From positions 3,785-67,784 of the forward strand of contig CAIKVZ010000293.1 in the NCBI GenBank assembly GCA_903830985.1: 64,000 nt of DNA, given 5' to 3'. The first letter of the stretch is position 1. Every line of letters begins with the position of its first letter. The DNA comes from an uncultured beta proteobacterium. GTDB taxonomy: Bacteria > Pseudomonadota > Gammaproteobacteria > Burkholderiales > Burkholderiaceae_C. Made by a program: the position numbers and the translations under genes. The notes under the pieces were generated by a model. That model had not been told where the DNA came from. It saw nothing but the letters and a program-made list of their open reading frames with translations, and did no database searches. This document shows, in pieces, positions 14,404-63,167 of this stretch.

Positions 14404-14635
14404 GTTTCATCCCGCAGTATTTTCCGATGGCCAAGCCCTTGCACGCGGCCTGCAATTCCTTCTCGCAAACCTCGTCCTTCTTGCCCGACTCCAGGCACTT
14501 GGCCGCGGCTTCATGCGCCGCCGCCATGGCACGGTGCCGGGCGATATCTTCCTTCATTTCCTTGTCGCTGTGCTGCGCCCAGACGCCGCCTGCGGCCAAA
14601 AACAAGGCAAGACCCAAGGTGTGATGCAGTTTCAT
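14393..14635 (-). CDS. Small exported helical Cys/His-containing protein, function unknown
   Basis: 80-aa ORF with signal peptide MKLHHTLGLALFLAAGGVWA-QH. The mature part has 4 Cys and ends GMKHEH. It sits in the operon between the permease and the DUF3299 gene. Confidence 0.6.
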   Translation of the reverse strand: MKLHHTLGLALFLAAGGVWAQHSDKEMKEDIARHRAMAAAHEAAAKCLESGKKDEVCEKELQAACKGLAIGKYCGMKHEH

Positions 14636-14657
14636 GTGCGTGGTTCCAATTGAATAA

Positions 14658-15872
14658 TCAGCGTTCGTTCAACAGCGTCAGCGGGTCCAGCCGGTACGCC
14701 GCCCAGGTGGGCAGCAGCGCCGCCAGCAGCGCCACGCCCCCAGCCAGCACCGGCACCGCCCATTCTCCCTCGACCCAGGTCCAGCCGGTGACCGAGAGGG
14801 ATTGTTGCCCTTGCAGCAACAAGCCTATCAGTCCGGTCAGGGCGTGGCCTGCCAGCATGCCCAACAGCGATGCCAGCAGCGCCAGCCACAGCGCCTCGCA
14901 CAGCAGCAGCGCAGCGACCCGCCTGCGCGGCGCGCCCAGCATGCGCAGCATGGCAAGATCGGCGCGGCGCTCCCGCACGGCATTCCACAGGGCGATGAAC
15001 ACGCTCACCGCGGCTGTCAGCAACAGCACCGCGCCAAAGCCGCGCAGCACCTCCGTGCCCACGCCCACCATGTGCAGCAGCCGGGTGATTTCCACCGCCG
15101 GCGCCGCCGCCTGCATGTTGGTGCTGCTGTTGACATAGCGCGGAAAACTCACCGCCGCCATCGGACTTTTGTAGCGGATCAGCGCCAGGGTGATCTCGCG
15201 CTCAGCTTCCAGCGCCGCGAGGTCCTCGGCGTCCAGCGGTGTGTCACCTTCGTAGGCCTTTTCATGCACCTGCCAGACTGATTCGGTGGCCGTCAGCACC
15301 AGGCGGTCGAGCACGCAGGCGCAGGGCTTGAGCACGCCGCGCACCCGGTACGGGTTGTCGCCATGGCTGTGGCCGCCGGCCCCCAGACCGTGCGTGCCGA
15401 CAAACCGCTGTCCGATCTGCAAGCCCGTGGCCAGCGCCACCTGCGTGCCGATCACCACCTGCATGGGCTGGTTCCAGAGTTCTCCCACGTCCAATTCAGC
15501 GCCGTAGTGCGTGATGTAGTCGGTCGTGGTGCCGACGATGCGAAAGCCGCGAAAGCTGTCGCCCAGGCTCAGCGGAATCAGTTCGGCAACCTGCGGGTTC
15601 TTTTGCAGTTCGCGGACCTCGGACAAGGCAATATTTCCCGGCGGCACGTCAAGGTGAAAAACCCCGGCCAGGATCAGCTGCATCGGGCTGCCCTTGGCGC
15701 CGACGACCAGGTCGATGCCCGCCAGGTCGCGCTCAAAGGCGTGGTCGATCTGTTCGCGCGTGAGCAGCACCATGGTGATGGACGCCAGGCCCAGCGCCAG
15801 CAGCAACAGGTTCAGCGCTGCGGCCAGCGGACGCGACCACAGGTAGCGAAAGGACAAAGCCAGCGTCTTCAT
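14658..15872 (-). CDS. ABC transporter permease, FtsX/MacB-like
   Basis: 404-aa ORF with an N-terminal TM, a large periplasmic loop and three C-terminal TM helices (layout of FtsX-type permeases). Its 4-nt overlap with the ATPase gene suggests coupling. Confidence 0.85.
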   Translation of the reverse strand: MKTLALSFRYLWSRPLAAALNLLLLALGLASITMVLLTREQIDHAFERDLAGIDLVVGAKGSPMQLILAGVFHLDVPPGNIALSEVRELQKNPQVAELIPLSLGDSFRGFRIVGTTTDYITHYGAELDVGELWNQPMQVVIGTQVALATGLQIGQRFVGTHGLGAGGHSHGDNPYRVRGVLKPCACVLDRLVLTATESVWQVHEKAYEGDTPLDAEDLAALEAEREITLALIRYKSPMAAVSFPRYVNSSTNMQAAAPAVEITRLLHMVGVGTEVLRGFGAVLLLTAAVSVFIALWNAVRERRADLAMLRMLGAPRRRVAALLLCEALWLALLASLLGMLAGHALTGLIGLLLQGQQSLSVTGWTWVEGEWAVPVLAGGVALLAALLPTWAAYRLDPLTLLNER

Positions 15873-16534
15873 GCGGCCACCGCCTCTTGCGTTGCGGCCT
15901 GGCTCAGGCGCAGTGTCAGCGCCTGCGGCAGCGCCGCAGCAACGCGGGCGTCGTGCGTGGCGATCACCAGCGTGGCGTTGCAGCGGGCAGCGCTGTCTTG
16001 CAGCAGCTTGACGGCCAGGGCTGCGGCCTCGTCGTCCAGGCTGGCCGTGGGTTCGTCCGCCAGGATCACCATGGGATGGAGCAACACGGCGCGCGCCAGC
16101 GCGACGCGCTGCGCCTGCCCGCCGGACAGCTGCTGCGGTCGGCGCTGCGCCAGATCGGCCACGCCCAGGGCTTGCAGCGCACGGTTGATTTCCCAGCGGT
16201 CCGGTGGCAAGCCAGCGGCAAAATAGACCAGGCCCAGGTTGTCCTGCACGTTCAAGGCACCGGTGAGGTGCAGCCTCTGCGGCAAAAAGCCCAGCTTGCG
16301 GGCACGCCAGGCGTCACGCGCTGCACCACCGATGGCCATCAAATCCTGTCCGGCCACGCTGATCGTGCCGCCGGCCGCGCTCAACAAGCCCGCGGCGAGC
16401 GCCAGCCAGGTCGACTTGCCGCTGCCCGAATTGCCGCGCAGCAGCAAGGTGGCGCCCTGCGGCAGGTCGACGTCGGGAAATAACAAGGGAGTGCCCTTGG
16501 GGTAACGGTAGCTCAGGGCTTGGGTGCGGATCAT
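15869..16534 (-). CDS. ABC transporter ATP-binding protein
   Basis: 221-aa ORF with Walker A GNSGSGKST, signature LSGGQAQRVALARA and Walker B ILADEPT. Confidence 0.9.
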   Translation of the reverse strand: MIRTQALSYRYPKGTPLLFPDVDLPQGATLLLRGNSGSGKSTWLALAAGLLSAAGGTISVAGQDLMAIGGAARDAWRARKLGFLPQRLHLTGALNVQDNLGLVYFAAGLPPDRWEINRALQALGVADLAQRRPQQLSGGQAQRVALARAVLLHPMVILADEPTASLDDEAAALAVKLLQDSAARCNATLVIATHDARVAAALPQALTLRLSQAATQEAVAA

Positions 16535-16725
16535 AGGGGGGCGATCTTAGTCCTTGTGTGTGAAGATTTCGTGTGCCAAGCCCTTGGGGCAGTGCTGGCA
16601 ACGAAGGTTCCCGAATGCGCCAACTAAAACGCAAGTTTCAGTGCAGGCTAACAATTGCCCGCAGGGCTTGTTAGGCCGGAACTACACTCGCCCAGCGTCC
16701 GAACTGGGCGCGGCTGGAGTCCTGC

Positions 16726-17601
16726 TTGTCCTATTCCCATCTTCTGCTGGCGTTGTCCGTCGTTTTTATCTGGGGAACGAACTTCGTTGTCATTCGCTGG
16801 GGGCTCGACGGTTTGCCACCCCTGCTGTTTGCCACGTTGCGCTTTGCCTTTTCCGCCCTGCCCTGGCTGCTCTTCATCCCCCGACCGGCTGTGCCCTGGT
16901 ACAAGCTGGCGCTGTTTGGCGTGCTGCTGGGCGGCCAGTTCGCCCTGATGTTTCTGGCCATACGCGCCGACATCTCGCCGGGCCTGGCTTCGCTGGTGAT
17001 CCAGGTGCAGGTGTTCTTCACCATCGGCCTGTCCCTGCTGATGCTGGGCGAGCGCGTGCGCGGCTACCAGTTGGTCGGGCTGCTGCTGGGGGTGGCCGGA
17101 CTGGCGGTGATCGCCTCGCACATCGACGCCACGCTCACGCCCAAGGGCATCGGCCTGATGGTGACGGCAGCCTTGTTCTGGGCCAGCGCGAACATGGTGG
17201 TCAAGACCGTGGGGCGGGTCGACATGCTGGGCTTCATGGTCTGGACCTGTTTGTTTGCCGTGCCGCCGTTGCTGGCCCTGTCGTGGTGGGTGGAAGGTCC
17301 GACCCTGATGCTGAGCAGCGTGCAGCAAGCCAGCGCCACGGTCTGGGCCTGCGTGCTGTGGCAGGCGGTGGGCAATTCGCTATACGGCTACGGCGCCTGG
17401 AACTGGTTGCTGGCGCGCCACCCTGCGGCCACCGTCACGCCGCTGGCGCTGCTCGTTCCCGTGTTCGGTATGGGCGCCTCGGCATTGTCGCTGGGCGAGT
17501 CGTTGCCCGGCTGGAAGCTCGGCGCGGCCGCTCTGGTGCTGTGCGGCCTGGCGGTGATCGTGCTGTGGCCGAGATGGCGCGCCAGGCTGAGCCGGACTTG
17601 A
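16726..17601 (+). CDS. EamA/DMT-family transporter
   Basis: 291-aa ORF with ten hydrophobic segments. The start MSYSHLLLALSVVFIWGTNFVVIRWG is typical of EamA domains. Confidence 0.85.
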   Translation: MSYSHLLLALSVVFIWGTNFVVIRWGLDGLPPLLFATLRFAFSALPWLLFIPRPAVPWYKLALFGVLLGGQFALMFLAIRADISPGLASLVIQVQVFFTIGLSLLMLGERVRGYQLVGLLLGVAGLAVIASHIDATLTPKGIGLMVTAALFWASANMVVKTVGRVDMLGFMVWTCLFAVPPLLALSWWVEGPTLMLSSVQQASATVWACVLWQAVGNSLYGYGAWNWLLARHPAATVTPLALLVPVFGMGASALSLGESLPGWKLGAAALVLCGLAVIVLWPRWRARLSRT

Positions 17602-17676
17602 GTTGTGCGGCGCGTGCCTCGGGCGCAGCCAAAACACCGGCGATAATTCCTGCCAGTCTGACACCTTCGGAGCTCG

Positions 17677-19587
17677 ATGCACATACGTCATGGCCTGCTG
17701 ATACTTGGGACGCTGCTGTGCCTCATGACGCAGCACGCCTGGGCGCAGTCCGAGCCGCGGCTGGCGCTGCTGATTGGCAACTCGGCGTACCGGTCCTCAC
17801 CCCTGGCCAACCCGGTGAACGATGTGCGGCTCATGGAGAGCGCGCTCAAGGAAACCGGCTTCACCGTGATCAAGGCCGAAAACGCGTCGATACGCGAGAT
17901 GCGTCGACTGGTACGCGACTTTGGCGACAAGTTGAAGGCCTCGGGCGGCGTGGGACTGTTCTATTTCGCGGGCCACGGCGTGCAGGTGCGCGGCGAAAAT
18001 TATCTGGTCTCGACCGATTCGGACATCCGCAACGAGGACGAGGTGGCCGACGATTCGATCAATGCCAGCGTCATCCTGGAAAAGATGCAGGGCGCGGGCA
18101 ACCGCATGAACCTGATCGTGCTCGACGCCTGCCGCAACAACCCCTTCGCCGTGAAATCGCGCAGCGCCGCGTCGGGCCTGGCCACCATGAGCGCGCCCAG
18201 CGGCTCGCTCGTCGCCTACGCCACGGCGCCGGGTTCGGTGGCGTCGGACGGGAGCGGCAACAACGGCCTGTACACCCAGCATCTGGCCAAGGTGATTCGC
18301 CAACCGGGGCTGCCTGTGGAAGAGGTTTTCAAGCAGGTGCGCGCCGCCGTGCGCCGTGCCAGCAACAACCAGCAGACACCCTGGGAAAACACCGCGCTGG
18401 AGGGCCAGTTCTACTTCAAGGCGCCGCCGGTGCAGGCCGAAGCCTTGCCGGCACCGGTGGCCGCGCGCCCGCCGTCCAATGAACCGGCGACGCTGGAGCT
18501 GATGCTGTGGGAGAGCGCCAAGAGCGCGACCACTTTGGGTGAATTGCAGGCCTACCTGAACCGTTACCCGAACGGCTTTTTCGCCGACATGGCGAAGGCG
18601 CGCATGGCGGCGCTGGGCGGTGTCGCCAACGACAAGGCGGCCGCGGAAAGGATCGCCAATGAGCGGGCTGAGTCCCAGCGCGCTGCGGCCGAGCGCGACG
18701 CGCAGGCGGCCAGACTGAAGACCGCCAACGAGTTTGCCACGGCGCAAGCCAGCCGAAAGGACGCAGAGGAACGCGCAGCGGCAGGCGCGAAACTGCAGAC
18801 TGCCGCCGAGCGTGCCGCAACTGAAGCGAAGCTGAAATCTGCGTCGGATCGTGTTGCAAATGAGGAAGCTCAGGCGGCGCAACAGTCTGCTGCAGCTTTG
18901 GCATTGGCAGTCGACCAGTGGAGTTGGGAGAAAATTCGCTTCAGCCAGAACCGGACTGAACTCGAGGCCTACCTGATGCAATTCCCGGACGGAAGCTTTT
19001 CTGCAGTGGCTAGGAGCCGGTTGGCACAGCTTGGAGCGGCACCGGCAACGCTTGCGCCCGGTCCAGTGCAGGCAGCGGCACCGAAGGCGGGCGACGTGAT
19101 CGGCACGATGGTGCTGACGGATACGCTCACGGGAATCAAGAGCGAGCTGGAAGTCACCGTGCTTGAGGCCGATGCGCAGAAGATCATGTACTCGACGGGG
19201 GATGTGATTGGAAGGGACGGCAAGGTATTGCAGGTCCGTGTCGGAGAAGTTGTGCTGGAACTCTTGTCTGGATCACTGTGGACAGTGCCGATAAAGGCCG
19301 GAGCGTCGGGCGAGGCCACAGTTCGCACGGGGATTGCTGCGGGCAGCCAGAAGGGCGAGTTGCAATGGAAGACATTGGATGCAGGCAATGGCAAGATCCG
19401 CGTTGATTCGACTGTTCAATATAGGGTGACGAACTCTAACGGAATCACGAATTTGGGGTCTGGGAATTGGCTGGCAAGCTACGTCAGCGGCCAACCAATT
19501 CCTGAGTCTTTTTCCACGAATATCAGAGGCGGAGCGGCTGCCAACGCCATCTTCAATTTATTCACGGCCGAACTGAAATTTCATTGA
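17677..19587 (+). CDS. Exported caspase-fold (peptidase C14) protein A: signal peptide, C14 domain, helical motif, Ala/Glu/Arg coiled coil, second helical motif, beta-rich C-terminal domain
   Basis: 636-aa ORF with signal LLILGTLLCLMTQHAWA-QS. C14 blocks LALLIGNSAYRSSPLANPVNDV, FYFAGHG (His100), LIVLDACRNNPF (Cys152). Confidence 0.85.
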   Translation: MHIRHGLLILGTLLCLMTQHAWAQSEPRLALLIGNSAYRSSPLANPVNDVRLMESALKETGFTVIKAENASIREMRRLVRDFGDKLKASGGVGLFYFAGHGVQVRGENYLVSTDSDIRNEDEVADDSINASVILEKMQGAGNRMNLIVLDACRNNPFAVKSRSAASGLATMSAPSGSLVAYATAPGSVASDGSGNNGLYTQHLAKVIRQPGLPVEEVFKQVRAAVRRASNNQQTPWENTALEGQFYFKAPPVQAEALPAPVAARPPSNEPATLELMLWESAKSATTLGELQAYLNRYPNGFFADMAKARMAALGGVANDKAAAERIANERAESQRAAAERDAQAARLKTANEFATAQASRKDAEERAAAGAKLQTAAERAATEAKLKSASDRVANEEAQAAQQSAAALALAVDQWSWEKIRFSQNRTELEAYLMQFPDGSFSAVARSRLAQLGAAPATLAPGPVQAAAPKAGDVIGTMVLTDTLTGIKSELEVTVLEADAQKIMYSTGDVIGRDGKVLQVRVGEVVLELLSGSLWTVPIKAGASGEATVRTGIAAGSQKGELQWKTLDAGNGKIRVDSTVQYRVTNSNGITNLGSGNWLASYVSGQPIPESFSTNIRGGAAANAIFNLFTAELKFH

Positions 19588-19669
19588 TGCACCATCTTCC
19601 AGCCATCCAATCCAGTACCTCTTTGATACGCCAGCACCGACAATCCACCCCAACAGCATTGAGACAACC

Positions 19670-20164
19670 ATGACGCCACATTACCCACAACGCCTGGCCT
19701 GGATCCTGGCGCTGTCCCTCTCCCTTCTGGCCTGCGCCTCCAGCCCCGATCCGCAGCCCCTCGCGCCGCCGCAGGCCGAACTGCAGTTCGTCGATCTTCA
19801 GGGCTTTGACCGCGATCTGAATGGTTCGCTCTCGGCGCCGCTGCCCCGGGTGGAAGTGGCTTTCTACGACCGCATTGTTCCCAGCGCCATGCCCGAGCGC
19901 CTGCAGCACTGGATGGCGGCCGTGGAAGCCGGCGGTGGCAAGGTCAGCATCATTCCCGTCAAACCGACAGTGACGGCGAAGAACCCGTTTCTGGTGATCA
20001 GCGCCATCAGCACGCTGTGGAGCGCCTCCAAAATGATGCGCGAGGCCAGCAGCGAGGCCAGGTTCAAGAGTGCGCAAACCTTTGACGCCGAAATCGTTCT
20101 CAAGCAGGACGCGCAGGGCGAATCCGTGGTGGACAAGGTGGTCTTCGTACAACGCAAAAAATAG
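19670..20164 (+). CDS. Lipoprotein, function unknown
   Basis: 164-aa ORF with lipobox ALSLSLLAC-ASS. I recognise no family motif. It is in the operon, 9 nt upstream of the OmpA-like gene. Confidence 0.7.
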   Translation: MTPHYPQRLAWILALSLSLLACASSPDPQPLAPPQAELQFVDLQGFDRDLNGSLSAPLPRVEVAFYDRIVPSAMPERLQHWMAAVEAGGGKVSIIPVKPTVTAKNPFLVISAISTLWSASKMMREASSEARFKSAQTFDAEIVLKQDAQGESVVDKVVFVQRKK

Positions 20165-20173
20165 GCGGGCCCG

Positions 20174-20686
20174 ATGCGACTCAGCATTCTCCCTGGACTG
20201 CTATGCCTGGCGGCGGCGGTAGCAGCCCTGGCGCAAACCGCCACGCCCAGCGCCGAGCAGATGGTCGAGCAGTTGCGCGCGGCGCCGCTGACCCGCAACC
20301 TCGCGGTGCAGGCGGTGGCCGGGTTGGCCGCAGCCGCACCGGCCAACCGCCCTTCGCTGTCGCTGCTGATCCAGTTCGACTTCGATTCGGCGCGCATCCG
20401 CAGCGAGAGCCAGGGCGCGTTGATGACGCTGGCGCAGGCCTTGCAGTCGCCTGAACTTCGCACCGTGCGCTTCGCTGTGGAAGGTCACACCGACGCCAAA
20501 GGCAGGGCCGACCACAACCAGCGCCTGAGCCAGCAGCGCGCTGAGGCGGTGCGCCAATTTCTCGGCGCCCAGGGCGTGGACGACACTCGCCTGCTGGCCG
20601 CAGGCATGGGATCGAGTCAACTGGCTGTCACCGGCCAGCCATACTCGGCCCTGAACCGGCGCGTGCGCATCGTCAATCTGCAGTAG
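20174..20686 (+). CDS. OmpA_C-like peptidoglycan-binding protein (short, no beta-barrel)
   Basis: 170-aa ORF with signal LCLAAAVAALA-QT. OmpA_C blocks FDFDSARIRSES, VEGHTDAKGRADHNQRLSQQRAEAV, NRRVRIV. Confidence 0.85.
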   Translation: MRLSILPGLLCLAAAVAALAQTATPSAEQMVEQLRAAPLTRNLAVQAVAGLAAAAPANRPSLSLLIQFDFDSARIRSESQGALMTLAQALQSPELRTVRFAVEGHTDAKGRADHNQRLSQQRAEAVRQFLGAQGVDDTRLLAAGMGSSQLAVTGQPYSALNRRVRIVNLQ

Positions 20687-20718
20687 CCGCGCGGCCCATT
20701 CCCGGCCCTTTTGAATGG

Positions 20719-22638
20719 ATGCATCACAGCATGACCCACCGCCATCAGTTGCACCGCAAACACTCGCCCCTCACCGTGGCAACAGCGCTGCTGTGCGCGT
20801 CCCTTGCGCTGCCAGGTCAGGCACAACCCGCAGCAACGGCCAAGGCGCCGCCAGGCGAGCGCAACCTGCAGGTGCAGGCGACAGCGCCTGTCGCCATCAA
20901 CAATGCGCAGCGCTTCGCCCTGGTGATCGGCAATTCGGATTACAGGGACGCCCCCTTGAGCAACCCGGTGAACGACGCGCGCGCCATCGCGGCAGCACTC
21001 AAGGAATCCGGATTTACCGTGATGTCGCGCGAAAACACCGACCAGCGCGGCATGCTGGCGGCGCTGCGTGAATTCGGCGACCACCTGCGCGCCGGTGGCA
21101 CCGGGCTGTTCTATTACGCCGGGCACGGCATGCAGATCAAGGGACGCAACTACCTGATCCCGGTGGGTGCGAACATCGAGCGCGAAGACGAAGTGGCCTA
21201 CAGCGCCGTCGACGCGCAGGCCGTGCTCGACAAGATGGAGGCGGCAGGCAACGTGGCCAACATCATGATCCTGGACGCCTGCCGCAACAACCCGTTCACG
21301 CGCAGCATGCGCTCCGGCCAGGCCGGCCTGGCGCAAATGGACGCGCCCGTGGGTACGCTCGTGGCCTACGCCACCTCGCCCGGCGCGGTGGCCAGCGACG
21401 GCGCCGGCGCCAATGGCCTGTACACGCAGCACCTGCTGACTGCCATCCGTGAGCCCGGCAACAAGGTGGAGGACGTGTTCAAGCAGGTGCGCGCCAATGT
21501 GCGGCGCGACTCGGCGGGCAAGCAAGTGCCCTGGGAATCCACTTCGCTGGAAGGCGACTTCTACTTCAAGCTAAGGCCCGCAACCGTGGCCCCGGTCGCA
21601 GTGGACCCGGCGCTGGCGCTGGAGTCCGCGCTGTGGGACGCGGTCAAGGACAGCAGCCTGCCGATCGAAGTTCGCGCCTATTTGAACCGCTACCCGAAGG
21701 GGCGTTTTGCAGAACAGGCGCAGGAGCGTTTGAAGCAACTCCAAGTGGCAGCCACGACCGCGACCGGCGCCGCAGTCCCGTTGGCAACAGACCAGGCCAA
21801 GGCCGAGGCCGCACGCAAGGCCAGTGCCGAACTCGCCAAAGCCGAGGCAATGCAGTTGGAGCAACGGACCAGGGCACAAGCCCAATTGGTGGTTGCGGCC
21901 GAGGTGGCACGGGCCAGGGACCAGGCAGCTGCCAGACAACGCAAGGACGAACAGTTGACCAGCCTGGCCAAGCCTGCGACGCCGCAAGTCGCAACAGCCG
22001 CGGCGCCGGTCAAACTCAGCCGGCCCCTGGCAGCCAGCAACAAGAATGGCTTCACCGTGGGAGACCGCTGGCGTTATCAGGTGGTAGACAAATTCAAGAA
22101 GGAAGTCGTGCGCAACTGGAGCCGCAAGGTCGACGCCGTCAACAGCGATGGCAGCCTGAAACTGAACGGGGGCACAGTGGATTGGGCGAGTGACGGTTCG
22201 ACCAAGGCAGCGCGTGGCGACGGGGGGTTCTTGCGCGAGTACTCGCCTGCAATGCCTTCGCAGCCGAGCAGTTTGAAGATCGGCTTCTCTGAACCAGTGA
22301 AGCTGACTTTGGCGTACCGCAACGCTGATGGCGTCAGCGGCACAGAGGAACTCGAGGGCACGATCACCGTGCTTGCCAAGGAAACGATCAAGGTGCCCGC
22401 AGGCGAATTTGAAACACTGAAAATCGAGTTATCTGTCACCACCAACGGCAAGAATTCAAGCTCTGGCACAGGCTACTACCAGAGAACCAAACAGGCCGCC
22501 TGGTACGTTCCCGCGCTGCGTAATTATGTCGCGTTGGAAGTCGAGGTGCGCAACCGAACCGGTCAGTTGCTGACTTTTGAGCGCAACGAGCTCACCAGCT
22601 TCTCGGTGCATGGCGCCGAACTGCTGGCGCAGCACTGA
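20719..22638 (+). CDS. Exported caspase-fold (peptidase C14) protein D, paralog of A with the same architecture
   Basis: 639-aa ORF with signal TVATALLCASLALPGQA-QP. C14 blocks FALVIGNSDYRDAPLSNPVNDA, FYYAGHG (His136), IMILDACRNNPF (Cys188). The start could be a few codons downstream (MTHRHQ). Confidence 0.85.
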   Translation: MHHSMTHRHQLHRKHSPLTVATALLCASLALPGQAQPAATAKAPPGERNLQVQATAPVAINNAQRFALVIGNSDYRDAPLSNPVNDARAIAAALKESGFTVMSRENTDQRGMLAALREFGDHLRAGGTGLFYYAGHGMQIKGRNYLIPVGANIEREDEVAYSAVDAQAVLDKMEAAGNVANIMILDACRNNPFTRSMRSGQAGLAQMDAPVGTLVAYATSPGAVASDGAGANGLYTQHLLTAIREPGNKVEDVFKQVRANVRRDSAGKQVPWESTSLEGDFYFKLRPATVAPVAVDPALALESALWDAVKDSSLPIEVRAYLNRYPKGRFAEQAQERLKQLQVAATTATGAAVPLATDQAKAEAARKASAELAKAEAMQLEQRTRAQAQLVVAAEVARARDQAAARQRKDEQLTSLAKPATPQVATAAAPVKLSRPLAASNKNGFTVGDRWRYQVVDKFKKEVVRNWSRKVDAVNSDGSLKLNGGTVDWASDGSTKAARGDGGFLREYSPAMPSQPSSLKIGFSEPVKLTLAYRNADGVSGTEELEGTITVLAKETIKVPAGEFETLKIELSVTTNGKNSSSGTGYYQRTKQAAWYVPALRNYVALEVEVRNRTGQLLTFERNELTSFSVHGAELLAQH

Positions 22639-22649
22639 GTCCCCGACAC

Positions 22650-24314
22650 ATGCAGTGGTGGCAATCTTTCACACGCCCCAGCGGCGCCTGGTCCACGGCG
22701 CGTGTCACCTGGGGCCTGGCCATGGCATTTTGCCTGTGGGCCGTGCTCGACCTGATGCTGCTGCAAGTCTCGGGAGGCCTGGGCAGCTCCACTTATGACA
22801 CCATGGTGCGCGCGCGCTTTTATGCCGCGCCGTCCGATCCGAGACTGGTGATTATCGACATCGACGAAGCCTCTCTGCTGCGCATGGCGCCGGAATTCGG
22901 CCGCTGGCCCTGGCCGCGCGACACCCTGGCCACGGTGCTCGACCATGTGGAAAAACAGCAGCCCCAGGCCATCATCTGGGATGTCCTGTTCAGCGACGCC
23001 GACCGCCTTTCGCCGGGAGGCGACCGCGCTTTTGACGAAGCCGCACGGCGCAGTGTGCACAGCCATTTTTCCGTGGTGCGCCTGCCCCAGGAATACGACG
23101 CACAAAGCCGGGTGACGCAGTCCACGCTGCCCAGCCTGTGGGACAGCGTGCCGGTCACGCCGGGAACCAGACCGTCCACGGTGGCGCTGATCGCACCGGT
23201 CCTGCCGGCAGTGGCCGCATCCCGATTGGGCTACAACAACGGCTATCCCGACGCCGACGGCGTGCTGCGCCGCTACCGTCTGGCGCAGACCCTGGCCGAC
23301 GGCAGCAGGATTCAGTCGCTGGCCCTGAGCGTGGCGCGCAGCCTGACGCCTGCCATTAGCCCCCCTGACGAACCGGCCAACGCGCTGATCCTGTGGCGCG
23401 CGCGCGCGAACCAGTACCCGCGTGTGCCTTTTGCCGACGTCTTTGCCGCCGCCGAGGGTGGCGTCCCTGGGCGCCCCCTGCCCAGCTTTGCCGGCAAGAT
23501 CGTGCTCATTGGCGCCACCGCGTCGAGCCTGCACGACATCCACCCCACGCCCTTGGTGGCGCAACAGGCCGGTGTCGACAGTCTGGCCACGGTCATCGAC
23601 AACGCCGTGAACCAGCGCCGCCTCATCGAACTGCCGCGCTGGCTTCAGGCCTTGCTGGCCATGGCACTGTGCCTGGGCATGGCGGCCTGGTCGCAACGCC
23701 AAGGGCTGGGTTCGCTCGACCCGGCCCTGTTCCTGCTGCCCGGAACGCTGCTGGGCGTGAGCTACCTGTCGCTCAATGCCGAGTGGTTTTGGCACAGCCC
23801 GGTCTTCCTCGACCTGCACCTGCCGGCTGGCATGGCTCTGCTCTACATGGCCTTGCTGCGCGGCTGGAACGGCCGGCACCGTGACCATTGGTGCGGCGAC
23901 GTCCCCGCCTGCGACGAAGTCCGGGGCGTGATGGCATTGGCATTGGAGCGTTCGGCCACCGGCATCGTGCTGGACGCTCTGCTGTTGGCCCTGCACCGGC
24001 ATGCGCCGCAATGTCGCTTGCTCGGGGGCGACGCCAGTGCCACCTGGCCGGCCCAAATGCGCTGGCCCGAGTTGCACCAGACCGTGGCCGTGGCCGGGCC
24101 GATGTCGCAGCTCCTTACCCTGCGTCAGGCCTTGCAGACCGCGCCGGACAGCGCGCGGCAATTGGGGCCCGTGGCGTGTGCGTTGCCGCTGCCCGTGCCG
24201 ACCCCTACCAGCCGCAGCGAATGGGCGCAGCACGCCCGCATCGCCTGCGCCCAACGCCCTTTCACAAGCCCACAGTCCAACCACGAAAGCCCGCATGTCG
24301 ACATCACCCTTTAA
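22650..24314 (+). CDS. CHASE2-domain membrane receptor with an about 150-aa cytoplasmic tail of no recognisable family
   Basis: 554-aa ORF with an N-terminal TM (WGLAMAFCLWAVLDLMLLQV). CHASE2 hallmark LVIIDIDEASLLRMAPEFGRWPWPRDTLATVLDHV...IIWDVLFSD. Three TM segments at about aa 331-405, then an orphan tail. Confidence 0.8.
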   Translation: MQWWQSFTRPSGAWSTARVTWGLAMAFCLWAVLDLMLLQVSGGLGSSTYDTMVRARFYAAPSDPRLVIIDIDEASLLRMAPEFGRWPWPRDTLATVLDHVEKQQPQAIIWDVLFSDADRLSPGGDRAFDEAARRSVHSHFSVVRLPQEYDAQSRVTQSTLPSLWDSVPVTPGTRPSTVALIAPVLPAVAASRLGYNNGYPDADGVLRRYRLAQTLADGSRIQSLALSVARSLTPAISPPDEPANALILWRARANQYPRVPFADVFAAAEGGVPGRPLPSFAGKIVLIGATASSLHDIHPTPLVAQQAGVDSLATVIDNAVNQRRLIELPRWLQALLAMALCLGMAAWSQRQGLGSLDPALFLLPGTLLGVSYLSLNAEWFWHSPVFLDLHLPAGMALLYMALLRGWNGRHRDHWCGDVPACDEVRGVMALALERSATGIVLDALLLALHRHAPQCRLLGGDASATWPAQMRWPELHQTVAVAGPMSQLLTLRQALQTAPDSARQLGPVACALPLPVPTPTSRSEWAQHARIACAQRPFTSPQSNHESPHVDITL

Positions 24315-26184
24315 ACCGCGCCTGGGCGCCATTGTGCTGGCAATGGCCGGCTTGCTCACGGCCGGAACCGCCGCTGCTCAGACCACAGCCACCTCACGCG
24401 CCACCGAACTGCGCGCCGACAAACTGGCCAGCGCGCCGATACTCGCGCCCCTGAGCGCGGGCGCCAGCCTGCGCCTGATCAGTCTGGAAGGCGGCTGGGC
24501 CTATGTGGAGCAGACCCTGCCTGCGGGGAGACAGGTGGGCTGGGTCCGTGCTTCGGCGCTGAACCTGCAGGCTGGCACCTCACTGGTTTCCAGCCAGGAC
24601 ACCGGACGCCAGGCCACGGGTGGTGGCGTCAACGCCGCCCTGACCCTGGGCGTGCGAAGCCTGCCGCCGCGGGTGAACCGGCATGCGTTGATCATCGGCA
24701 TCAGCCGTTACGCCGATCCGGCCACGCCACAGCTGCCGGGTGCGCGCATCGACAAGCAGTCGGCCACGCAGATGGCGCAAGCGATGCAGGTGCCAATGAG
24801 CAATATCCGCTATCTGCAGGACGAGCAGGCTACGGGCAAGGGAATCCGCCAGGCTCTGCAGGAGCTCAACGACCAGGTACAGGACGGGGACCGCGTGTTT
24901 ATTCATTTCTCGGGGCACGGCACGCGCTACAACGACCCGGCCGCTGGCGGCTGTGTCGAAGCCCTGCTGGCTTACGACGGCGGACAAAGCGGCGTCATCA
25001 CGAACCATGAAATGGCCGACCTGCTCAAGGGCATCACCAACAAGACCGACAAGCTGTTCGTCATGTACGACGCCTGCCATTCGGGCGGCGTGGTACAGGC
25101 CGCCAGCGCGGTGCGCACGCGCGGCCTGCTCAACAGCGACGACGAGGGCCTGCTGCGCCCCAAGTTCGCGGGCATTTCGCAAGAGTGCGGCCGTCCCGTC
25201 AACATCAAGTCACGCAATCTGGTGGTGGAAACGGCGGCTCAGGGCGCCCTGCCGCAAGACATCATCCACGTCAGCGCGTCGCGCGATAACGAGATCAGCT
25301 TTGACGATGAACTCAAGGGCGGACTGGCCACGCAGTTCATGCGCGACTGCATGCTGCGCGACGCGGTCGACCTGGACAACTCGGGCTCCATCAGCATGGA
25401 AGAGATCCGCCAGTGCGCCCAGGAGAAGATCAACAAGCGCATGGCGCACGACGTGAACTTCAAGCCGCACAACCTGGTGCTCAACGGCAACGCGGCCTTC
25501 GTTCCGTCCTGGTTCGGCCTGGCCAGCACCGCACCGGTGAGCGCCATCGCGGCGACGCTCCCGCCCACGGGGCAAGCTGCAACCAACACCGTGCAGCCTG
25601 CGCCCGTGGTGGCGGCACCGGTTACAACAGCGCCAGCGGTCGCGGCACCGCTCAGCGGCGCGCAGGCTTTGCAGCAGCTGTTCGAACAGCGCGACGCCAA
25701 GCGCCGTGTGCAACTCACCACAGCCAAGGACAAACTCAAGATCGGTCAGGACGCACTCGACCTGGCGGTGCAATCGGACCGCGCCGGCTACGTGTACGTG
25801 GCGCTGGCAGGATCGGACAACAAGTCGGTCTACCTGCTGTTCCCCAACGACCTGGACGCCAACAACCGGATCGAGGCGAACCAGCAACTGCTGCTGCCGC
25901 GACCGGCCTGGCGCGTCAAGGCCGCAGGACCGGTGGGTAAAGACCAACTGCTGGTGCTGGTTGCCGACGGCCCGCGCGACCTGCACGCGCTGGCCGCAGC
26001 CAAGGCCGGTCCCTTCGTCACCTCGCTGAACGACGCCCAGGGACGGGCCCAGTTGGGTGCCCTGCTGACGCGCTCCGCAACGGCGAATGGCGACAGCTGC
26101 AGCAGCCCCGCCGCGCGAAAGAAGAACCCGCAATGCTCCGACGCCTATGGCGCGGCCATGTTGACAGTAGAGGAGACAAAATGA
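24295..26184 (+). CDS. Exported SH3-like + metacaspase-like (C14) + EF-hand loop + DUF4384-like protein F
   Basis: In-frame part of track ORF 24001..26184. The ATG at 24295 gives MSTSPFKPRLGAIVLAMAGLLTAGTAAA-QT. Further blocks: SH3_3-like LRLISLEGGWAYVEQ...VGWVRASAL, IHFSGHG (His208), VMYDACHSGG (Cys261), DLDNSGSISMEE, and DUF4384-like GYVYVALAGSDNKSVYLLFPND. Overlaps the CHASE2 gene by 20 nt. Confidence 0.8.
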   Translation: MSTSPFKPRLGAIVLAMAGLLTAGTAAAQTTATSRATELRADKLASAPILAPLSAGASLRLISLEGGWAYVEQTLPAGRQVGWVRASALNLQAGTSLVSSQDTGRQATGGGVNAALTLGVRSLPPRVNRHALIIGISRYADPATPQLPGARIDKQSATQMAQAMQVPMSNIRYLQDEQATGKGIRQALQELNDQVQDGDRVFIHFSGHGTRYNDPAAGGCVEALLAYDGGQSGVITNHEMADLLKGITNKTDKLFVMYDACHSGGVVQAASAVRTRGLLNSDDEGLLRPKFAGISQECGRPVNIKSRNLVVETAAQGALPQDIIHVSASRDNEISFDDELKGGLATQFMRDCMLRDAVDLDNSGSISMEEIRQCAQEKINKRMAHDVNFKPHNLVLNGNAAFVPSWFGLASTAPVSAIAATLPPTGQAATNTVQPAPVVAAPVTTAPAVAAPLSGAQALQQLFEQRDAKRRVQLTTAKDKLKIGQDALDLAVQSDRAGYVYVALAGSDNKSVYLLFPNDLDANNRIEANQQLLLPRPAWRVKAAGPVGKDQLLVLVADGPRDLHALAAAKAGPFVTSLNDAQGRAQLGALLTRSATANGDSCSSPAARKKNPQCSDAYGAAMLTVEETK

Positions 26185-26663
26185 TTACGCATCGCACAAT
26201 TTTCTTTGGTTCACTCATCGGCCTGCTTACCTTATCGGCGCAGGCACAGGGCGGCCGCGGCCTGGCGGAAAACTGGCTGATCAGCCCGGCCGAGGCGCTG
26301 CAGTATCAGGGCGAGGAAGCGTTCAACGAGCCGCCGGCCCTGCGGCCCCGCGCGGTCATGCCGGTCATCGACATCCTGCGGCCCGAACCCGTGCCCGACC
26401 TGAAGGTGAAGGCGCCCTTCGCCATCGCCGTGCAGTTCCGGGCCCAGTCCGACGCAGCCATTGACCCGGCCAGCTTCAAGGTGTTTTACGGCGCCTTCAA
26501 ACTCGATATCACCGGTCGCATCACGACGCACGTGAAGGTCTCAGCCGATGGATTCACGCTGGACAACGCCCGCATCCCCGTGGGCAAACACCGTCTGACC
26601 TTGCACATCGAGGACGAAAAACAACGCGTCGCCGAGCGCGAGTTGCGCGTGGAAGTGGAGTGA
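26181..26663 (+). CDS. Small secreted protein, function unknown (last gene of the caspase operon)
   Basis: In-frame part of track ORF 26133..26663. ATG at 26181 overlaps the upstream stop (ATGA). Signal FFGSLIGLLTLSAQA-QG. The mature part is beta-strand-like (KVKAPFAIAVQF, FKLDITGRITTHVKV, HRLTLHIED). Confidence 0.65.
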   Translation: MITHRTIFFGSLIGLLTLSAQAQGGRGLAENWLISPAEALQYQGEEAFNEPPALRPRAVMPVIDILRPEPVPDLKVKAPFAIAVQFRAQSDAAIDPASFKVFYGAFKLDITGRITTHVKVSADGFTLDNARIPVGKHRLTLHIEDEKQRVAERELRVEVE

Positions 26664-26709: not shown

Positions 26710-27261
26710 CTACCTGGCAAGTCGGGCAAAGGTCTTGCGGAACTTCGCCACCTTGGGTCCGGCCACGGCCATGCAATAACCCTGGTTCGGGTTTTTCGCG
26801 AAGAAGTCCTGGTGGTAGTCCTCGGCCGCGAAGTAGTGCGCCAGCGGCAGCACCTCGGTCACGATGGGGCGGGTGCTGGCCGGGTCGCCTTGCAATTCGG
26901 CGATCACTGCGCGCGCCACCGCCTCCTGCTCGGGCGTCGAGAAGTAAATGCCGCTACGGTACTGCGTTCCCGCGTCGTTGCCCTGGCGGTTCAGCGTCGT
27001 CGGGTCGTGGATCAGAAAGAAGATCTCCAGGATTTCGCGCAGGCTGATCTGTGCCGGGTCAAAGCGCAGCTGCACCACCTCGTTGCAACCGGTGCGGCCC
27101 GTGCAGACCTGCTCGTAGCTCGGCGCCGTGCCCTGGCCATTGCAGTAGCCGCTTTGCACGTCGTCCACGCCCTTGACGCCGACGAACACGGCATCAAGGC
27201 ACCAGAAGCAGCCTCCGCCGAGCGTGATGGTTTCCAGATTGGTGGTCATGGTGACGTCCAA
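26710..27261 (-). CDS. msrA: Peptide-methionine (S)-S-oxide reductase
   Basis: 183-aa ORF with active-site block TLGGGCFWCLDAVF and the later block YHQDFFAKNP. The start may be the second Met (MTTNLE). Confidence 0.9.
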   Translation of the reverse strand: MDVTMTTNLETITLGGGCFWCLDAVFVGVKGVDDVQSGYCNGQGTAPSYEQVCTGRTGCNEVVQLRFDPAQISLREILEIFFLIHDPTTLNRQGNDAGTQYRSGIYFSTPEQEAVARAVIAELQGDPASTRPIVTEVLPLAHYFAAEDYHQDFFAKNPNQGYCMAVAGPKVAKFRKTFARLAR

Positions 27262-27361
27262 AAATTGAAGGAGACGGCATTGTCGGGGCGATGGCGGATT
27301 CGCGTTGAAACTTCAGCAATCCCTGCGTTGCCATAACGGCCATGGGATACTGGCCACCGCC

Positions 27362-28405
27362 ATGATCACCTACTACAACGAACTCCACGCCCTGCACCAG
27401 GGCAGGCTGGAAATGTTCCGCGGTGCGCTCGTTCCCTGTTTTGAAGTGCCGGCGCGCGTTGACCATGTGCGCGACGAATTGCTGCGCCGCGGGGGCGGCA
27501 CGCTGACGCCCAAGGCATTCCCCGACAGCGCGCTGCTCGGCGTGCACAGCGCGCGCTACCTGGATTTTCTGCAGCACGCTTGGGACGACTGGCTGGCGCT
27601 GGATCCGGCAAACGCCGGGCGCGACGCCCTGCCCTCGGTCTGGCCGATACGCGGCATGCGCAGCGACTTTTTACCGGACAACTTTTCCGCCCGCATGGGC
27701 CTGTTTTCCTTTGACGCGGGCACGCCGCTGACCAGCGGCACCTGGGCGGCGGCACGCGCCGGCGCCGACTGCGCGCTGAGTGCGGCGCACAGCGTGCTGC
27801 ACGGCGAGCGCGCAGCTTTTGCCCTGACGCGTCCGCCCGGCCACCACGCGGGGGCGGACTTCTTTGGCGGCTACTGCTTCCTGAACAACGCCGCGCTGGC
27901 GGCGCAGTCGCTGTGCGACGCAGGCCTGCAGCGCGTGGCCGTGCTGGACCTGGACTACCACCACGGCAACGGCACTCAGTCCATCTTCTATGAACGTGCT
28001 GACGTGTTCTTTGCCAGTGTGCACGGCGACCCGCGCACCGAATACCCCTTCTACTTGGGCCACGCGGACGAGACCGGCGCCGGCGCGGGGCTGGGCTGCA
28101 ATTTGAACCTCCCATTGGCGCGGGGCAGCGACTTTGTCACCTGGTCCGCCGCACTCGAACATGCTCTTGAAAAAATAGCAGCCTTCGGCGCCGACGCGCT
28201 CGTGGTTTCGCTCGGTCTGGACACCTTTGCCGGCGACCCGATCTCCGGCTTCAGCTTGCAAAGCGCCGACTACCTGCGGGTGGGCCAGCGCCTGGCCGCG
28301 GCAGGACTGCCCACGGTGCTGGTGTTCGAGGGCGGTTACGCCGTGGCCGAAGTCGGCGTGAACGCCGTCAATGTGCTCGAGGGCTTCGACACGATCAGTC
28401 CTTGA
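27362..28405 (+). CDS. Histone deacetylase-family (arginase-fold) deacetylase, acetylpolyamine amidohydrolase-like
   Basis: Track ORF 27305..28405 with the start moved to MITYYNE (ATG at 27362). Blocks RPPGHHAG, GYCFLNNAA, DLDYHHGNGTQ, SLGLDTFAGDP. Confidence 0.85.
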   Translation: MITYYNELHALHQGRLEMFRGALVPCFEVPARVDHVRDELLRRGGGTLTPKAFPDSALLGVHSARYLDFLQHAWDDWLALDPANAGRDALPSVWPIRGMRSDFLPDNFSARMGLFSFDAGTPLTSGTWAAARAGADCALSAAHSVLHGERAAFALTRPPGHHAGADFFGGYCFLNNAALAAQSLCDAGLQRVAVLDLDYHHGNGTQSIFYERADVFFASVHGDPRTEYPFYLGHADETGAGAGLGCNLNLPLARGSDFVTWSAALEHALEKIAAFGADALVVSLGLDTFAGDPISGFSLQSADYLRVGQRLAAAGLPTVLVFEGGYAVAEVGVNAVNVLEGFDTISP

Positions 28406-61394: not shown

Positions 61395-61422
61395 AGGCGT
61401 CCAGGCAGGCGAACGGCCACTG

Positions 61423-62859: not shown

Positions 62860-63167
62860 CCCGCCAACAGACGCGCGTTTATTCAGCCAAACACCTTCTA
62901 ATTCGGGCGATGTTACACGTCAGCCCCGCCCCGGGCAGAACTCGTGGGCATGCAGCCAGCCGAACTGGTGCGCGGCGATCCAAAAAGCCAATGGGTTCAG
63001 GTATTCATGCATTCCCTGCGGCGCCGAGCTTTTTAGCGCGATAAACTCTCGCCCTGACAGCCTTGAGCGGCTGCGCATGTGGGCTTGCGCAGAGAACCCG
63101 CCAGTGTCGCTGCCGTGTGGCGGTGCGGGGATGCACACCAACGTTCGACGTCAATCGGGAATACTTC

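Follow-up and report, generated by a model that had tools for sequence, protein, structure and literature searches.

A seven-gene cluster for predicted envelope proteins, including three putatively exported caspase-type proteases and a CHASE2 membrane protein, in freshwater Comamonadaceae

We propose that a cluster of seven genes in freshwater Comamonadaceae encodes an envelope-resident, peptidoglycan-anchored system of periplasmic caspase-type proteases, gated by a CHASE2 membrane protein (E) and a small Ig-like protein (G), with the module being chromosomal and mostly vertically inherited; to this explanation as a whole we assign a probability of about 0.4. The seven tightly packed open reading frames, termed A to G, lie on the forward strand at positions 17677-26663 of the window (the whole stretch of 64,000 nt of DNA that was analysed) and are as follows, where core and accessory refer to their conservation across related loci.

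A, 17677..19587, + strand: predicted exported MALT1-like C14 caspase, 636 aa (Pfam Peptidase_C14, E 3e-42); accessory
B, 19670..20164, + strand: predicted orphan lipoprotein, 164 aa, lipobox LLA↓C at residues 19-22; accessory
C, 20174..20686, + strand: predicted exported OmpA_C-like peptidoglycan-binding protein, 170 aa (Pfam OmpA, E 1e-20); core
D, 20719..22638, + strand: second predicted exported MALT1-like C14 caspase, 639 aa (Pfam Peptidase_C14, E 4e-41); accessory
E, 22650..24314, + strand: CHASE2 membrane protein, 554 aa (Pfam CHASE2, E 5e-48); core
F, 24295..26184, + strand: predicted exported metacaspase-like protease, 629 aa (Peptidase_C14, E 2e-21; DUF4384, E 2e-13); core
G, 26181..26663, + strand: predicted exported orphan, 160 aa, signal peptide AQA↓Q; core in this clade

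The genes are separated by gaps of 82, 9, 32 and 11 nt and joined by overlaps of 20 nt (the end of E with the start of F) and 4 nt (the stop of F with the start of G), and the convergent msrA gene (26710-27261; PMSR, E 7e-61) starts 46 nt past the end of the cluster. The coordinates thus bear out the original prediction of seven same-strand genes with these spacings that end against msrA. It is noted that promoter and terminator scans of the cluster gave nothing beyond the shuffled control.

The evidence for an envelope location comes from the N-termini of the products. The signal peptides were read by eye from their n, h and c regions; in A, C, D, F and G these regions end in AxA, GQA or AAA and are followed by Gln, and, as had been claimed at the outset, an export signal is seen by eye or by model on every product when the lipobox of B and the transmembrane helix of E are included. 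Based on these signals, all seven products are predicted to leave the cytoplasm or to be inserted into the membrane. It is unlikely that seven envelope-targeted products out of seven would be met by chance, with the probability being ~2e-4 by our own estimate, for which ~30% of the proteome was assumed to be exported.

The searches with Pfam gave Peptidase_C14 (PF00656) in A, D and F with 145, 142 and 77.5 bits, respectively, at a gathering cut-off of 21.4, together with CHASE2 in E, OmpA in C and DUF4384 in F, all of which had been anticipated; of the SH3_3 domain anticipated likewise, the F protein of the window shows only a weak SH3-type match (SH3_16, E 0.05), SH3_3 itself being recorded for the orthologue of Variovorax terrae. 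The motifs of the His-Cys dyad that had been read in A, D and F are all present, as are the lipobox LSLLAC of B and GRWPWPR of E, with A aligning with MALT1 and F with the metacaspases. In A, FYFAGHG and LDACR align with LYYAGHG and LDMCR of MALT1, which we take to hold the catalytic His and Cys of MALT1; D carries the same His/Cys motifs as A, and the dyad is retained in 31 of the 32 relatives of the A/D type. Moreover, the best match of A among solved structures is the MALT1 paracaspase (PDB 3v4o, 3uo8 and others), with E 1e-11. Note also that in A, D and F an Asp stands two residues ahead of the catalytic Cys, as it does in the aligned MALT1 (LDMCR) and AtMC4 (SDSCHSGG). Since an Asp at this position is linked to Arg/Lys specificity in the caspase family, it is likely that A, D and F prefer a basic P1 residue (Arg or Lys).

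In A, the signal peptide (AWA↓Q) is followed by the caspase domain (residues 28-246), two TPR-like helical hairpins (~283-313 and ~412-452) with an Ala/Glu/Arg-rich linker between them, and a beta-rich C-terminus. D, with the signal peptide GQA↓Q and the caspase domain at residues 65-282, has a single helical hairpin, and its linker leads to a beta domain at the C-terminus. From the caspase domain through the first hairpin, the two proteins share 51% identity, and residues 409-452 of A, a repeat of the hairpin, match residues 298-341 of D (E 3e-6). Their C-terminal domains have no relationship to one another, with that of D showing a weak, sub-threshold resemblance to DUF3108 (E 0.0065). A faint DUF3108 mark is also seen on a related caspase in locus L087.

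F starts with a signal peptide (AAA↓Q) and an SH3-like N-domain, which are followed by the p20 and p10 regions, where His208 and Cys261 are located; next come the EF-hand loop (359-370), the Pro/Ala linker and finally DUF4384 (482-557). Its HFSGHG and DACHSGG align with HYSGHG and DSCHSGG of AtMC4, its dyad also aligns with that of Yca1, and it has a p10-like SxxDNExS segment. In 49 F orthologues, the catalytic dyad and six non-catalytic Cys residues are invariant, and so are the EF-hand ligands D359, D361, S363, G364 and E370 of the loop DxDxSGxIxxxE, the Pfam matches to the EF-hand being sub-threshold. Because of the six invariant non-catalytic Cys residues and the invariant EF-hand loop, F looks extracytoplasmic, and its sequence fits that of a disulfide-bonded, Ca2+-binding protease.

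C has a signal peptide (ALA↓Q) and an OmpA domain (residues 68-156), with no beta-barrel and no lipobox. The protein scores 73.9 bits against OmpA (PF00691), the cut-off being 27.2, has the peptidoglycan-contact motif GHTD...LSQQRA in its sequence, and resembles the C-terminal domains of Pal, YiaD and YfiB; as an equivalog of Pal, YiaD, YfiB or MotB it was rejected, all the NCBIfam scores being below cut-off (the best one, to YiaD, being 82.7 bits against 175). The canonical OmpA_C domain of C supports its predicted anchoring to peptidoglycan. For B, the lipobox of the original prediction is strengthened by the finding that its Cys is invariant in 25 homologues. B has 246 homologues and a mature domain of ~140 aa, and no match to it was found in Pfam, NCBIfam or PADLOC. 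By the sorting rule of E. coli lipoproteins, the residue at position +2 decides the membrane destination, and since this residue is Ala in B, the protein is probably sorted to the outer membrane.

G consists of a conserved N-terminal stretch (residues ~24-60), which is poorly modelled, and an Ig-like beta sandwich (residues ~60-160), with the pLDDT being 63 for the AF2 model and 70-84 for the sandwich. Residues 32-68 are nearly invariant yet of low model confidence, as expected for a docking segment. The family has 472 homologues and 593 representatives at 50% identity, some relatives of G being OmpA-G fusions, and no Pfam family matches it, so that B and G are indeed the two orphan exported proteins that had been described. 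The structural check suggested for G returned the Ig-like sandwich as a generic fold, with the best Foldseek matches being to CopC and PKD domains and none better than E 2e-3; with only generic Ig/PKD/CopC sandwiches and a mediocre model, the fold gives no specific function for G. It is also noted that the idea of the ALRPRA segment of G as a family-wide cleavage site is weakened, because both Arg residues are invariant only in a close subfamily, to which the segment is confined.

E scores 164 bits against CHASE2 (PF05226), the cut-off being 26.3, and has more than 1000 homologues. In its AF2 model (pLDDT 75, pTM 0.71), there are transmembrane helices at residues 16-38, 330-351, 353-376 and 390-414, one before CHASE2 and three after it, with the CHASE2 domain (~32-344) placed in the periplasm and an alpha/beta domain of ~110 aa (~421-535) in the cytoplasm. 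With these four modelled helices, E is predicted to be the only membrane-spanning component of the cluster. It had been supposed that E is output-less. This is inconsistent with the tail, which is a conserved cytoplasmic domain modelled with confidence (pLDDT ~80-95) and belonging to no known family: W414, L441, D442, A452, P453, R456, W466, P467, W472, P473 and G483 are invariant, giving the signature WC...APxCR...WP...WPE, and no match to the tail was found in Pfam (E up to 10), in NCBIfam or, by profile search, among the PDB sequences. When the confident fold was submitted to Foldseek, as had been suggested, only weak matches (E >0.1) to ACT, CutA and PII-like ferredoxin folds were returned. 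Thus, no recognised output domain (cyclase, kinase or GGDEF/EAL) was found in E by Pfam, NCBIfam, PDB or Foldseek searches, and the idea that the tail is a cyclase or GGDEF domain in degenerate form is not supported.

The conservation of the cluster was analysed by comparing gene neighbourhoods at 80 loci from related genomes. G directly follows F in 48 of 51 loci, and F is preceded by E in 41 of 45. Among the close loci, 36 of 43 have C, which is also retained in variants that lack E (F-C-G) or G (C-D-E-F). B occurs in 17 of 42 related loci, mostly as the gene immediately before C, and A/D-type caspases occur in 18 of 37; only 4 of 29 loci have a gene that intervenes between C and E. The conserved core thus comprises C, E, F and G only, with A, B and D being accessory, and the pair that is constant over all variants is C and F. 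The genes do not lie side by side merely by chance. Of the co-conservation expected for all seven genes, the retention of gene order in related genomes holds, and the extension beyond the C/E/F/G core to A, B and D does not. The existence of the E-less and G-less variants implies that neither E nor G is essential for F. An MlaD-like cluster is seen upstream of the G-less variants, and none was found in the window.

In at least 15 loci, the module has a fixed position, with ptsI on one side and either lipA or a gene for fumarylacetoacetate hydrolase (FAH) on the other, and the core proteins are 50-75% identical across genera, which suggests vertical inheritance under purifying selection. The hosts are Limnohabitans (L048, L050, L055), Rhodoferax, Polaromonas and Variovorax, which are freshwater bacteria, planktonic or in biofilms, and by its nearest relatives the window is assigned to the Comamonadaceae. 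The flanks checked in the window, ~13 kb upstream of the cluster and 4.5 kb downstream of it, contain housekeeping genes, among which there is no integrase, defence island or additional defence gene; no tRNA or Rfam match is present in the window, and the G+C of the cluster region is that of its surroundings. An origin from a mobile element is therefore not supported, in agreement with the earlier reading of core-gene flanks with neither integrase nor tRNA. A gene for a PAS-GGDEF-EAL protein lies 4 kb upstream of the cluster and one for an exported M16 peptidase 2 kb downstream.

It was stated in the original prediction that the C14 proteases studied so far act in the cytoplasm. The idea of an exported C14 protease is, however, an older one. 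A survey of 2012 (Asplund-Samuelsson et al., PMC3501461) reported that 46 prokaryotic metacaspases carry N-terminal transmembrane helices or signal peptides and that OmpA occurs in 14 operons with metacaspases; it also recorded multi-metacaspase operons, DUF4384 and CHASE2 among the associated domains and one metacaspase-CHASE2 fusion. Tat-type pseudo-orthocaspases were also proposed earlier (PMC6426788). On the other hand, no characterised system of this composition was found in the literature search, as had been surmised, and the set C-E-F-G (OmpA-like protein, CHASE2 protein with an orphan tail, C14/DUF4384 protease and Ig-like orphan) is described in no paper found.

The proteases have in common with the prokaryotic metacaspases and orthocaspases (e.g., MaOC1 of Microcystis) the p20-type fold, the His-Cys dyad and an Asp ahead of the catalytic Cys, whereas the experimentally studied members are cytoplasmic and the three proteases here are predicted to be exported, with F adding the EF-hand and the six conserved cysteines. 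With MALT1, A (and D) shares the LYYAGHG and LDMCR motifs almost exactly, a likeness that would imply an Arg-specific S1 pocket in A; A and D lack both the death domain and the flanking Ig domains of MALT1, and are bacterial, predicted to be exported, and equipped with TPR-like hairpins and C-terminal beta domains of their own. The known kinds of CHASE2 receptors, such as CyaD1, CyaD2 and CyaK of Sinorhizobium meliloti, the CHASE2 kinases and the GGDEF proteins, have outputs, whereas E has no cyclase, kinase or GGDEF domain but the conserved ~110-aa domain of an orphan family, and its partner proteases, unlike those outputs, would be on the same side of the membrane as its sensor domain. The S. 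meliloti CHASE2 cyclases respond to a protein signal via an outer-membrane protein (PMC13001267), so that CHASE2 is able to sense proteins. The pairing of caspase with CHASE2 seen here is found also within single proteins, in the metacaspase-CHASE2 of Trichodesmium (PMC3501461) and in EACC2-caspase-CHASE2 (PMC8195603); the caspase part of these fusions is predicted to lie in the cytoplasm and to serve as the receptor output, while here the caspase is a separate, putatively exported protein.

Against the model of EACC1-associated caspases (NF047832; cut-off 140 bits), A, D and F score 62.6, 69.4 and 32.8 bits, which are far below the cut-off, and the assignment to that type was rejected. In PADLOC, the generic caspase model matches A, D and F, with the other matches being only MotB-like. 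A defined defence system (gasdermin, Craspase, SAVED-CHAT or others in PADLOC) was also rejected, because the partner genes (for gasdermin, Cas7-11/Csx30, a cyclic-nucleotide sensor or an NTPase) are absent and the proteases, which in those systems are cytoplasmic, are predicted here to be exported; in agreement with the original prediction, neither PADLOC nor the flank check revealed a gasdermin, NTPase or nuclease as a partner.

Two systems serve as analogues. In the LapD/LapG system of Pseudomonas fluorescens, an inner-membrane receptor with degenerate GGDEF-EAL domains controls a periplasmic Ca2+-dependent Cys protease and thus the cleavage of an envelope protein. Its likeness to E and F is one of logic only, the proteins being not homologous, and no family of the LapD or LapG type was found among the seven products in Pfam or NCBIfam. 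Protease inhibitors that are encoded in operons are exemplified by staphostatins with staphopains, AprI/Inh with alkaline protease, and chagasin, and some of these block the active site with an N-terminal segment. By analogy, G is a small protein of the beta-sandwich or barrel type, encoded directly downstream of a protease and predicted to reside in the same compartment, although it has no sequence match or significant fold match to these inhibitors.

In our model, F would be kept at the cell wall through C and through the SH3-like and DUF4384 domains that F itself carries, and would need Ca2+, bound by the EF-hand, and periplasmic disulfide bonds, with F, A and D cutting after Arg or Lys. 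The gating of F would be performed by E, the CHASE2 ectodomain of which may bind the protease or a peptide that the protease produces, and the cytoplasmic domain of which may couple the gating to the state of the cell by a logic like that of LapD/LapG. G, presumably coupled to F in translation, would be a dedicated periplasmic inhibitor or adaptor of F, with its flexible conserved N-terminus (ALRPRA) docking on the protease; C and G are linked by the OmpA-G fusion proteins and the F-C-G operons. A and D may widen or prime the activity of F, and the output would be a controlled cutting of wall-associated envelope proteins of the cell itself, serving envelope remodelling or signalling. Each mechanistic step beyond localisation is one that we infer. 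A further-reaching form of the model, in which a caspase-based relay, the first of its kind, would run wholly outside the cytoplasm, with the E tail switching the wall-anchored, Ca2+-dependent caspases on or off from the inside out, G representing a new family of inhibitors or adaptors and A and D being the initiators upstream of F as the executioner, is regarded by us as rather improbable.

Alternatively, the cluster could be a suicide or defence module of the envelope, in which phage attack or envelope damage, sensed by E or by the variable C-terminal domains of A and D, leads to the cleavage of Lpp-, OmpA- or Pal-type tethers and to lysis, in the manner of abortive infection or programmed cell death. 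Such a module would be consistent with the bacterial caspases being known mostly from conflict and cell-death systems (PMC8195603), with the PADLOC caspase match of A, D and F, with the patchy occurrence of A, B and D, with the unrelated C-terminal domains of A and D, which are typical of diversifying sensors, with the presence of the module in at least two genomic contexts, and with the CHAT, trypsin and MORN-caspase genes that related loci add. Against it stand the surroundings, in which neither an integrase or tRNA nor a defence island or further defence gene is seen, the lack of a match to any defined PADLOC system, the vertical inheritance indicated by the core identity and fixed syntenic site, a G+C equal to that of the host and the presence of the module in Limnohabitans, so that we consider this alternative doubtful, though to be taken seriously.

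Two other explanations place the proteases in the periplasm as well. A switch of the LapD/LapG type, which would release or mature a large adhesin or another surface or outer-membrane protein encoded elsewhere and so decide between attachment and planktonic life, with E relaying an intracellular signal, is in our judgement quite improbable, since the loci inspected and their immediate neighbourhoods contain neither an adhesin gene nor a type I secretion gene, the E tail has no detectable GGDEF, EAL or nucleotide-binding family, and the system is predicted to be anchored to peptidoglycan and not to the outer-membrane surface; the logic of an inner-membrane receptor with a periplasmic Cys protease, the cytoplasmic domain of E, the nearby PAS-GGDEF-EAL gene and the planktonic or biofilm life of the freshwater hosts are nevertheless in its favour. 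It is also conceivable that A, D and F are nutritional or housekeeping proteases that degrade imported or misfolded proteins, with E, C, B and G being unrelated neighbours. Degradative periplasmic or secreted proteases of clan CD do exist (gingipains, clostripain), and the exported M16 peptidase is encoded close by, but the retention of the order C-E-F-G, the overlaps between genes and the existence of OmpA-G fusions stand against unrelated neighbours. The predicted anchoring, EF-hand and membrane partner speak for proteolysis that is regulated and not for bulk turnover, and we regard mere degradation as highly improbable.

To our knowledge, the bacterial relatives of caspases are understood almost entirely as cytoplasmic effectors of death or defence. 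Three families are now defined, namely, the G family (593 clusters at 50% identity), the family of lipoprotein B and the tail domain of E, and the hosts are abundant freshwater bacteria, some of which are cultivable. If the reading of the cluster as a peptidoglycan-anchored caspase system gated by E and G is true, regulated proteolysis of the caspase type would be extended to the periplasm, and CHASE2, the ligands and mechanism of which are largely unknown, would gain a concrete protein partner.

The operon consists of seven ORFs lying on the same strand of the window, which are given below with the E values of their Pfam matches.

A, 17677-19587, + strand, ORF, Peptidase_C14 (E 3e-42)
B, 19670-20164, + strand, ORF, no Pfam family
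C, 20174-20686, + strand, ORF, OmpA (E 1e-20)
D, 20719-22638, + strand, ORF, Peptidase_C14 (E 4e-41)
E, 22650-24314, + strand, ORF, CHASE2 (E 5e-48)
F, 24295-26184, + strand, ORF, Peptidase_C14 (E 2e-21) and DUF4384 (E 2e-13)
G, 26181-26663, + strand, ORF, no Pfam family

The coordinates confirm the gaps of 82, 9, 32 and 11 nt and the overlaps of 20 and 4 nt that were claimed in the original prediction, with the run ending against the convergent msrA gene across a spacer of 46 nt. Every motif quoted there is found in the sequences, and orthologue alignments beginning at residue 1 back the starts assigned to D, F and G. That description of the operon is largely correct and the finding is real, with A, D and F being true members of Peptidase_C14, E of CHASE2 and C of OmpA_C.

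The three caspases have intact catalytic sites, as had been proposed. In A, which is MALT1-like, FYFAGHG and LDACR align on LYYAGHG and LDMCR of the MALT1 paracaspase (E 1e-11), and D has the same His/Cys motifs; the metacaspase-like F aligns with plant and yeast metacaspases, its HFSGHG and DACHSGG falling on HYSGHG and DSCHSGG. A and D are 51% identical across the caspase domain and the first helical hairpin, their C-termini being mutually unrelated and that of D showing a weak resemblance to DUF3108. The motif pair xYAGHG / LDACR[ND][ND]PF is kept in 31 of 32 proteins of the A/D type from the related loci. Note also that all three proteases have an Asp two positions before the catalytic Cys, a residue that in MALT1 and the metacaspases contributes to the basic-specific S1 pocket.

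In F, the signal peptide is followed by a weakly detectable SH3-like domain (SH3_16, E 0.05; SH3_3 is on record for the Variovorax terrae orthologue), the p20 region holding His208 and Cys261, an Arg/Lys-rich linker (265-320), a p10-like segment, an EF-hand loop, a Pro/Ala linker and DUF4384, which the literature describes only in terms of its frequent fusion to proteases and kinases. Across 49 orthologues the dyad, the six non-catalytic cysteines 220, 298, 352, 374, 602 and 614 and the EF-hand ligands D359, D361, S363, G364 and E370 are invariant. With these cysteines and the canonical Ca2+ loop, the sequence of F fits a disulfide-bonded, Ca2+-binding extracytoplasmic enzyme.

The signal peptides of the seven products were judged by eye. 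The Sec-type signals claimed for A, C, D, F and G are present, with a charged n-region and a hydrophobic core leading in each to a small-x-small site and then Gln, and the lipobox Cys of the lipoprotein B is invariant in 25 homologues. E is predicted to have a single TM helix on the N-terminal side of the CHASE2 domain and three more on the C-terminal side. The signals thus read show a predicted envelope localisation for the module, and its anchoring domains are likewise shown.

By contrast, the designation of E as output-less does not hold. In more than 1000 homologues of about the same length no output domain is recognised, and the tail after TM4 is conserved, with W414, L441, D442, A452, P453, R456, W466, P467, W472, P473 and G483 invariant and two conserved Cys, and is predicted with pLDDT of about 80-95 to form a beta-alpha-beta-beta-alpha-beta-alpha domain. 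The tail has no relative in Pfam or among PDB sequences, and its fold search gave only ferredoxin-like matches, all non-significant; the CHASE2 ectodomain likewise has no relative among the solved structures. Since the tail is conserved and confidently modelled and has no known relative, E is better termed a protein with an output of an unknown family. One related locus, L016, has a second CHASE2 gene (14622-15818) some 4 kb downstream of the module, coding for a divergent paralogue that shares 28% identity with E.

The G family, which no Pfam model covers, comprises 472 close homologues and 593 clusters at 50% identity. The model of G is mediocre (pLDDT 63), with an Ig-like sandwich predicted for the C-terminal 100 residues; CopC and PKD domains match this sandwich best, at E values no lower than 2e-3. 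Residues 32-68 are near-invariant in close homologues and yet poorly modelled, as would be expected of a segment folding only on a partner. In three homologues (P0399, P0403 and P0419) an OmpA_C domain carries a C-terminal G domain, and in a fourth (P0421, 462 aa) the G domain follows about 350 residues without any Pfam match. The orphan lipoprotein B is conserved and has 246 homologues, and C, with its canonical OmpA_C domain, falls outside all the named NCBI equivalogs tested (Pal, YiaD, MotB).

The module is co-conserved in related genomes. A search with the G alignment, taking one genome per GTDB species, gave 80 loci, mostly in freshwater metagenome-assembled genomes, from Rhodoferax, Polaromonas, Limnohabitans, Variovorax, Ramlibacter, Rubrivivax, other Comamonadaceae and Oxalobacteraceae, onto which the seven proteins were mapped by tblastn. 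Counting only loci with G at least 50% identical and with enough upstream DNA, F is present upstream of G in 48 of 51, E in 41 of 45, C in 36 of 43, B in 17 of 42 and an A/D-type caspase in 18 of 37, and a gene between C and E, the place of D in the window, occurs in only 4 of 29. From these counts and the rarity of that gene, the window holds the maximal version of the module and the core is C-E-F-G. Variants exist without E (F-C-G, in L075-L081) and without G (C-D-E-F or C-E-F-D', in L002, L086 and L087), the pair common to all being C and F. Distant G homologues (35-38% identity) again stand among exported-type proteases; the cluster at L069 (4929-13750), with a 707-aa caspase, an FGE-sulfatase, two unknown genes, G (38% identity), a TPR-trypsin and a MORN-caspase, indicates that the G family accompanies several kinds of protease.

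In the loci without G, a same-strand set of three genes lies directly upstream of the OmpA gene (L002, 4568-7367; L086, 3441-6394; L087, 5465-8228), encoding an MlaD/MCE-domain protein together with two others, of about 270-310 aa, that match no Pfam family. A DsbA gene precedes the set in L002 and L086, and in L002 an extra unannotated 224-aa ORF, the C homologue, lies between the set and the caspase gene. The set may be a further envelope component of this variant; no MlaD-like cluster was found among the window ORFs scanned.

At least 15 loci have the module placed between ptsI on one side and either lipA or a fumarylacetoacetate hydrolase gene on the other, a setting different from that in the window (EamA to msrA). 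The conserved context, a G+C content of the operon region equal to that of its surroundings, the lack of any tRNA or Rfam match in the window and the housekeeping genes flanking the operon point to a chromosomal module that is mainly vertically inherited and not a recent island. In the window a cluster of DUF3299, a small ORF, a MacB/FtsX permease and an ABC ATPase (13813-16534, - strand) adjoins the module; L087 has the same DUF3299/FtsX/ABC neighbours (14949-17697), but on the opposite side, with msrA also near, which could reflect local rearrangement or a preferred site. Also in the window, a gene for a 966-aa PAS-GGDEF-EAL protein (10864-13764, - strand; GGDEF E 4e-44, EAL E 3e-69) lies about 4 kb upstream of the operon, and a histone-deacetylase-family gene (27305-28405, + strand) converges on that of a 914-aa M16 (pitrilysin-like) peptidase (28395-31139, - strand), whose N-terminus resembles a signal peptide, the 3' ends overlapping by 11 nt. 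Positions 61001-64000 have a G+C of about 0.60, against about 0.65 in the rest of the window.

With a probability of about 0.4, we propose that the module carries out regulated envelope proteolysis. In this model, F would be tethered at the peptidoglycan through C and its own SH3-like and DUF4384 domains, would need Ca2+ and would cleave after basic residues. E is the sole membrane-crossing component, its gene overlapping that of F, and may gate F via the CHASE2 ectodomain while coupling to the cytoplasm via the orphan tail domain. G, which would be translationally coupled to F and share its compartment and is sometimes fused to OmpA, may be a dedicated inhibitor or adaptor, with A, D and B as optional extensions. 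The pairing of E with F is made plausible by the CHASE2 cyclases of S. meliloti, which sense a protein signal by way of an outer-membrane protein (PMC13001267), and by recurrent caspase-CHASE2 fusions (PMC3501461, PMC8195603), although in the fusions the caspase is on the cytoplasmic side, unlike the exported F. The closest functional analogy is the LapD/LapG switch, with no homology between the systems, and no module protein was found to belong to LapD/LapG.

The same machinery could instead serve self-lysis or defence, as conflict roles are common in bacterial caspases and the accessory content of the module is patchy. We consider this, the main rival, unlikely. Conserved synteny, strong sequence conservation and the absence of any defence context argue against it and for a physiological role. 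In PADLOC no system matches the module proteins, and the module caspases fall outside the EACC1 caspase family.

Finally, we note that the general ideas behind the module are not new, the individual associations having been noticed at survey level. Asplund-Samuelsson et al. 2012 (PMC3501461) described metacaspases with probable signal peptides, 14 metacaspase operons that include OmpA, operons in which as many as three metacaspases occur, and a fusion of a metacaspase with CHASE2. Full-text searches found no paper describing or testing this gene set. We class the module as a bacterial caspase operon that is in this case fully extracytoplasmic and has a defined conserved core, and that contributes three uncharacterised families as well as a CHASE2 partner open to testing.
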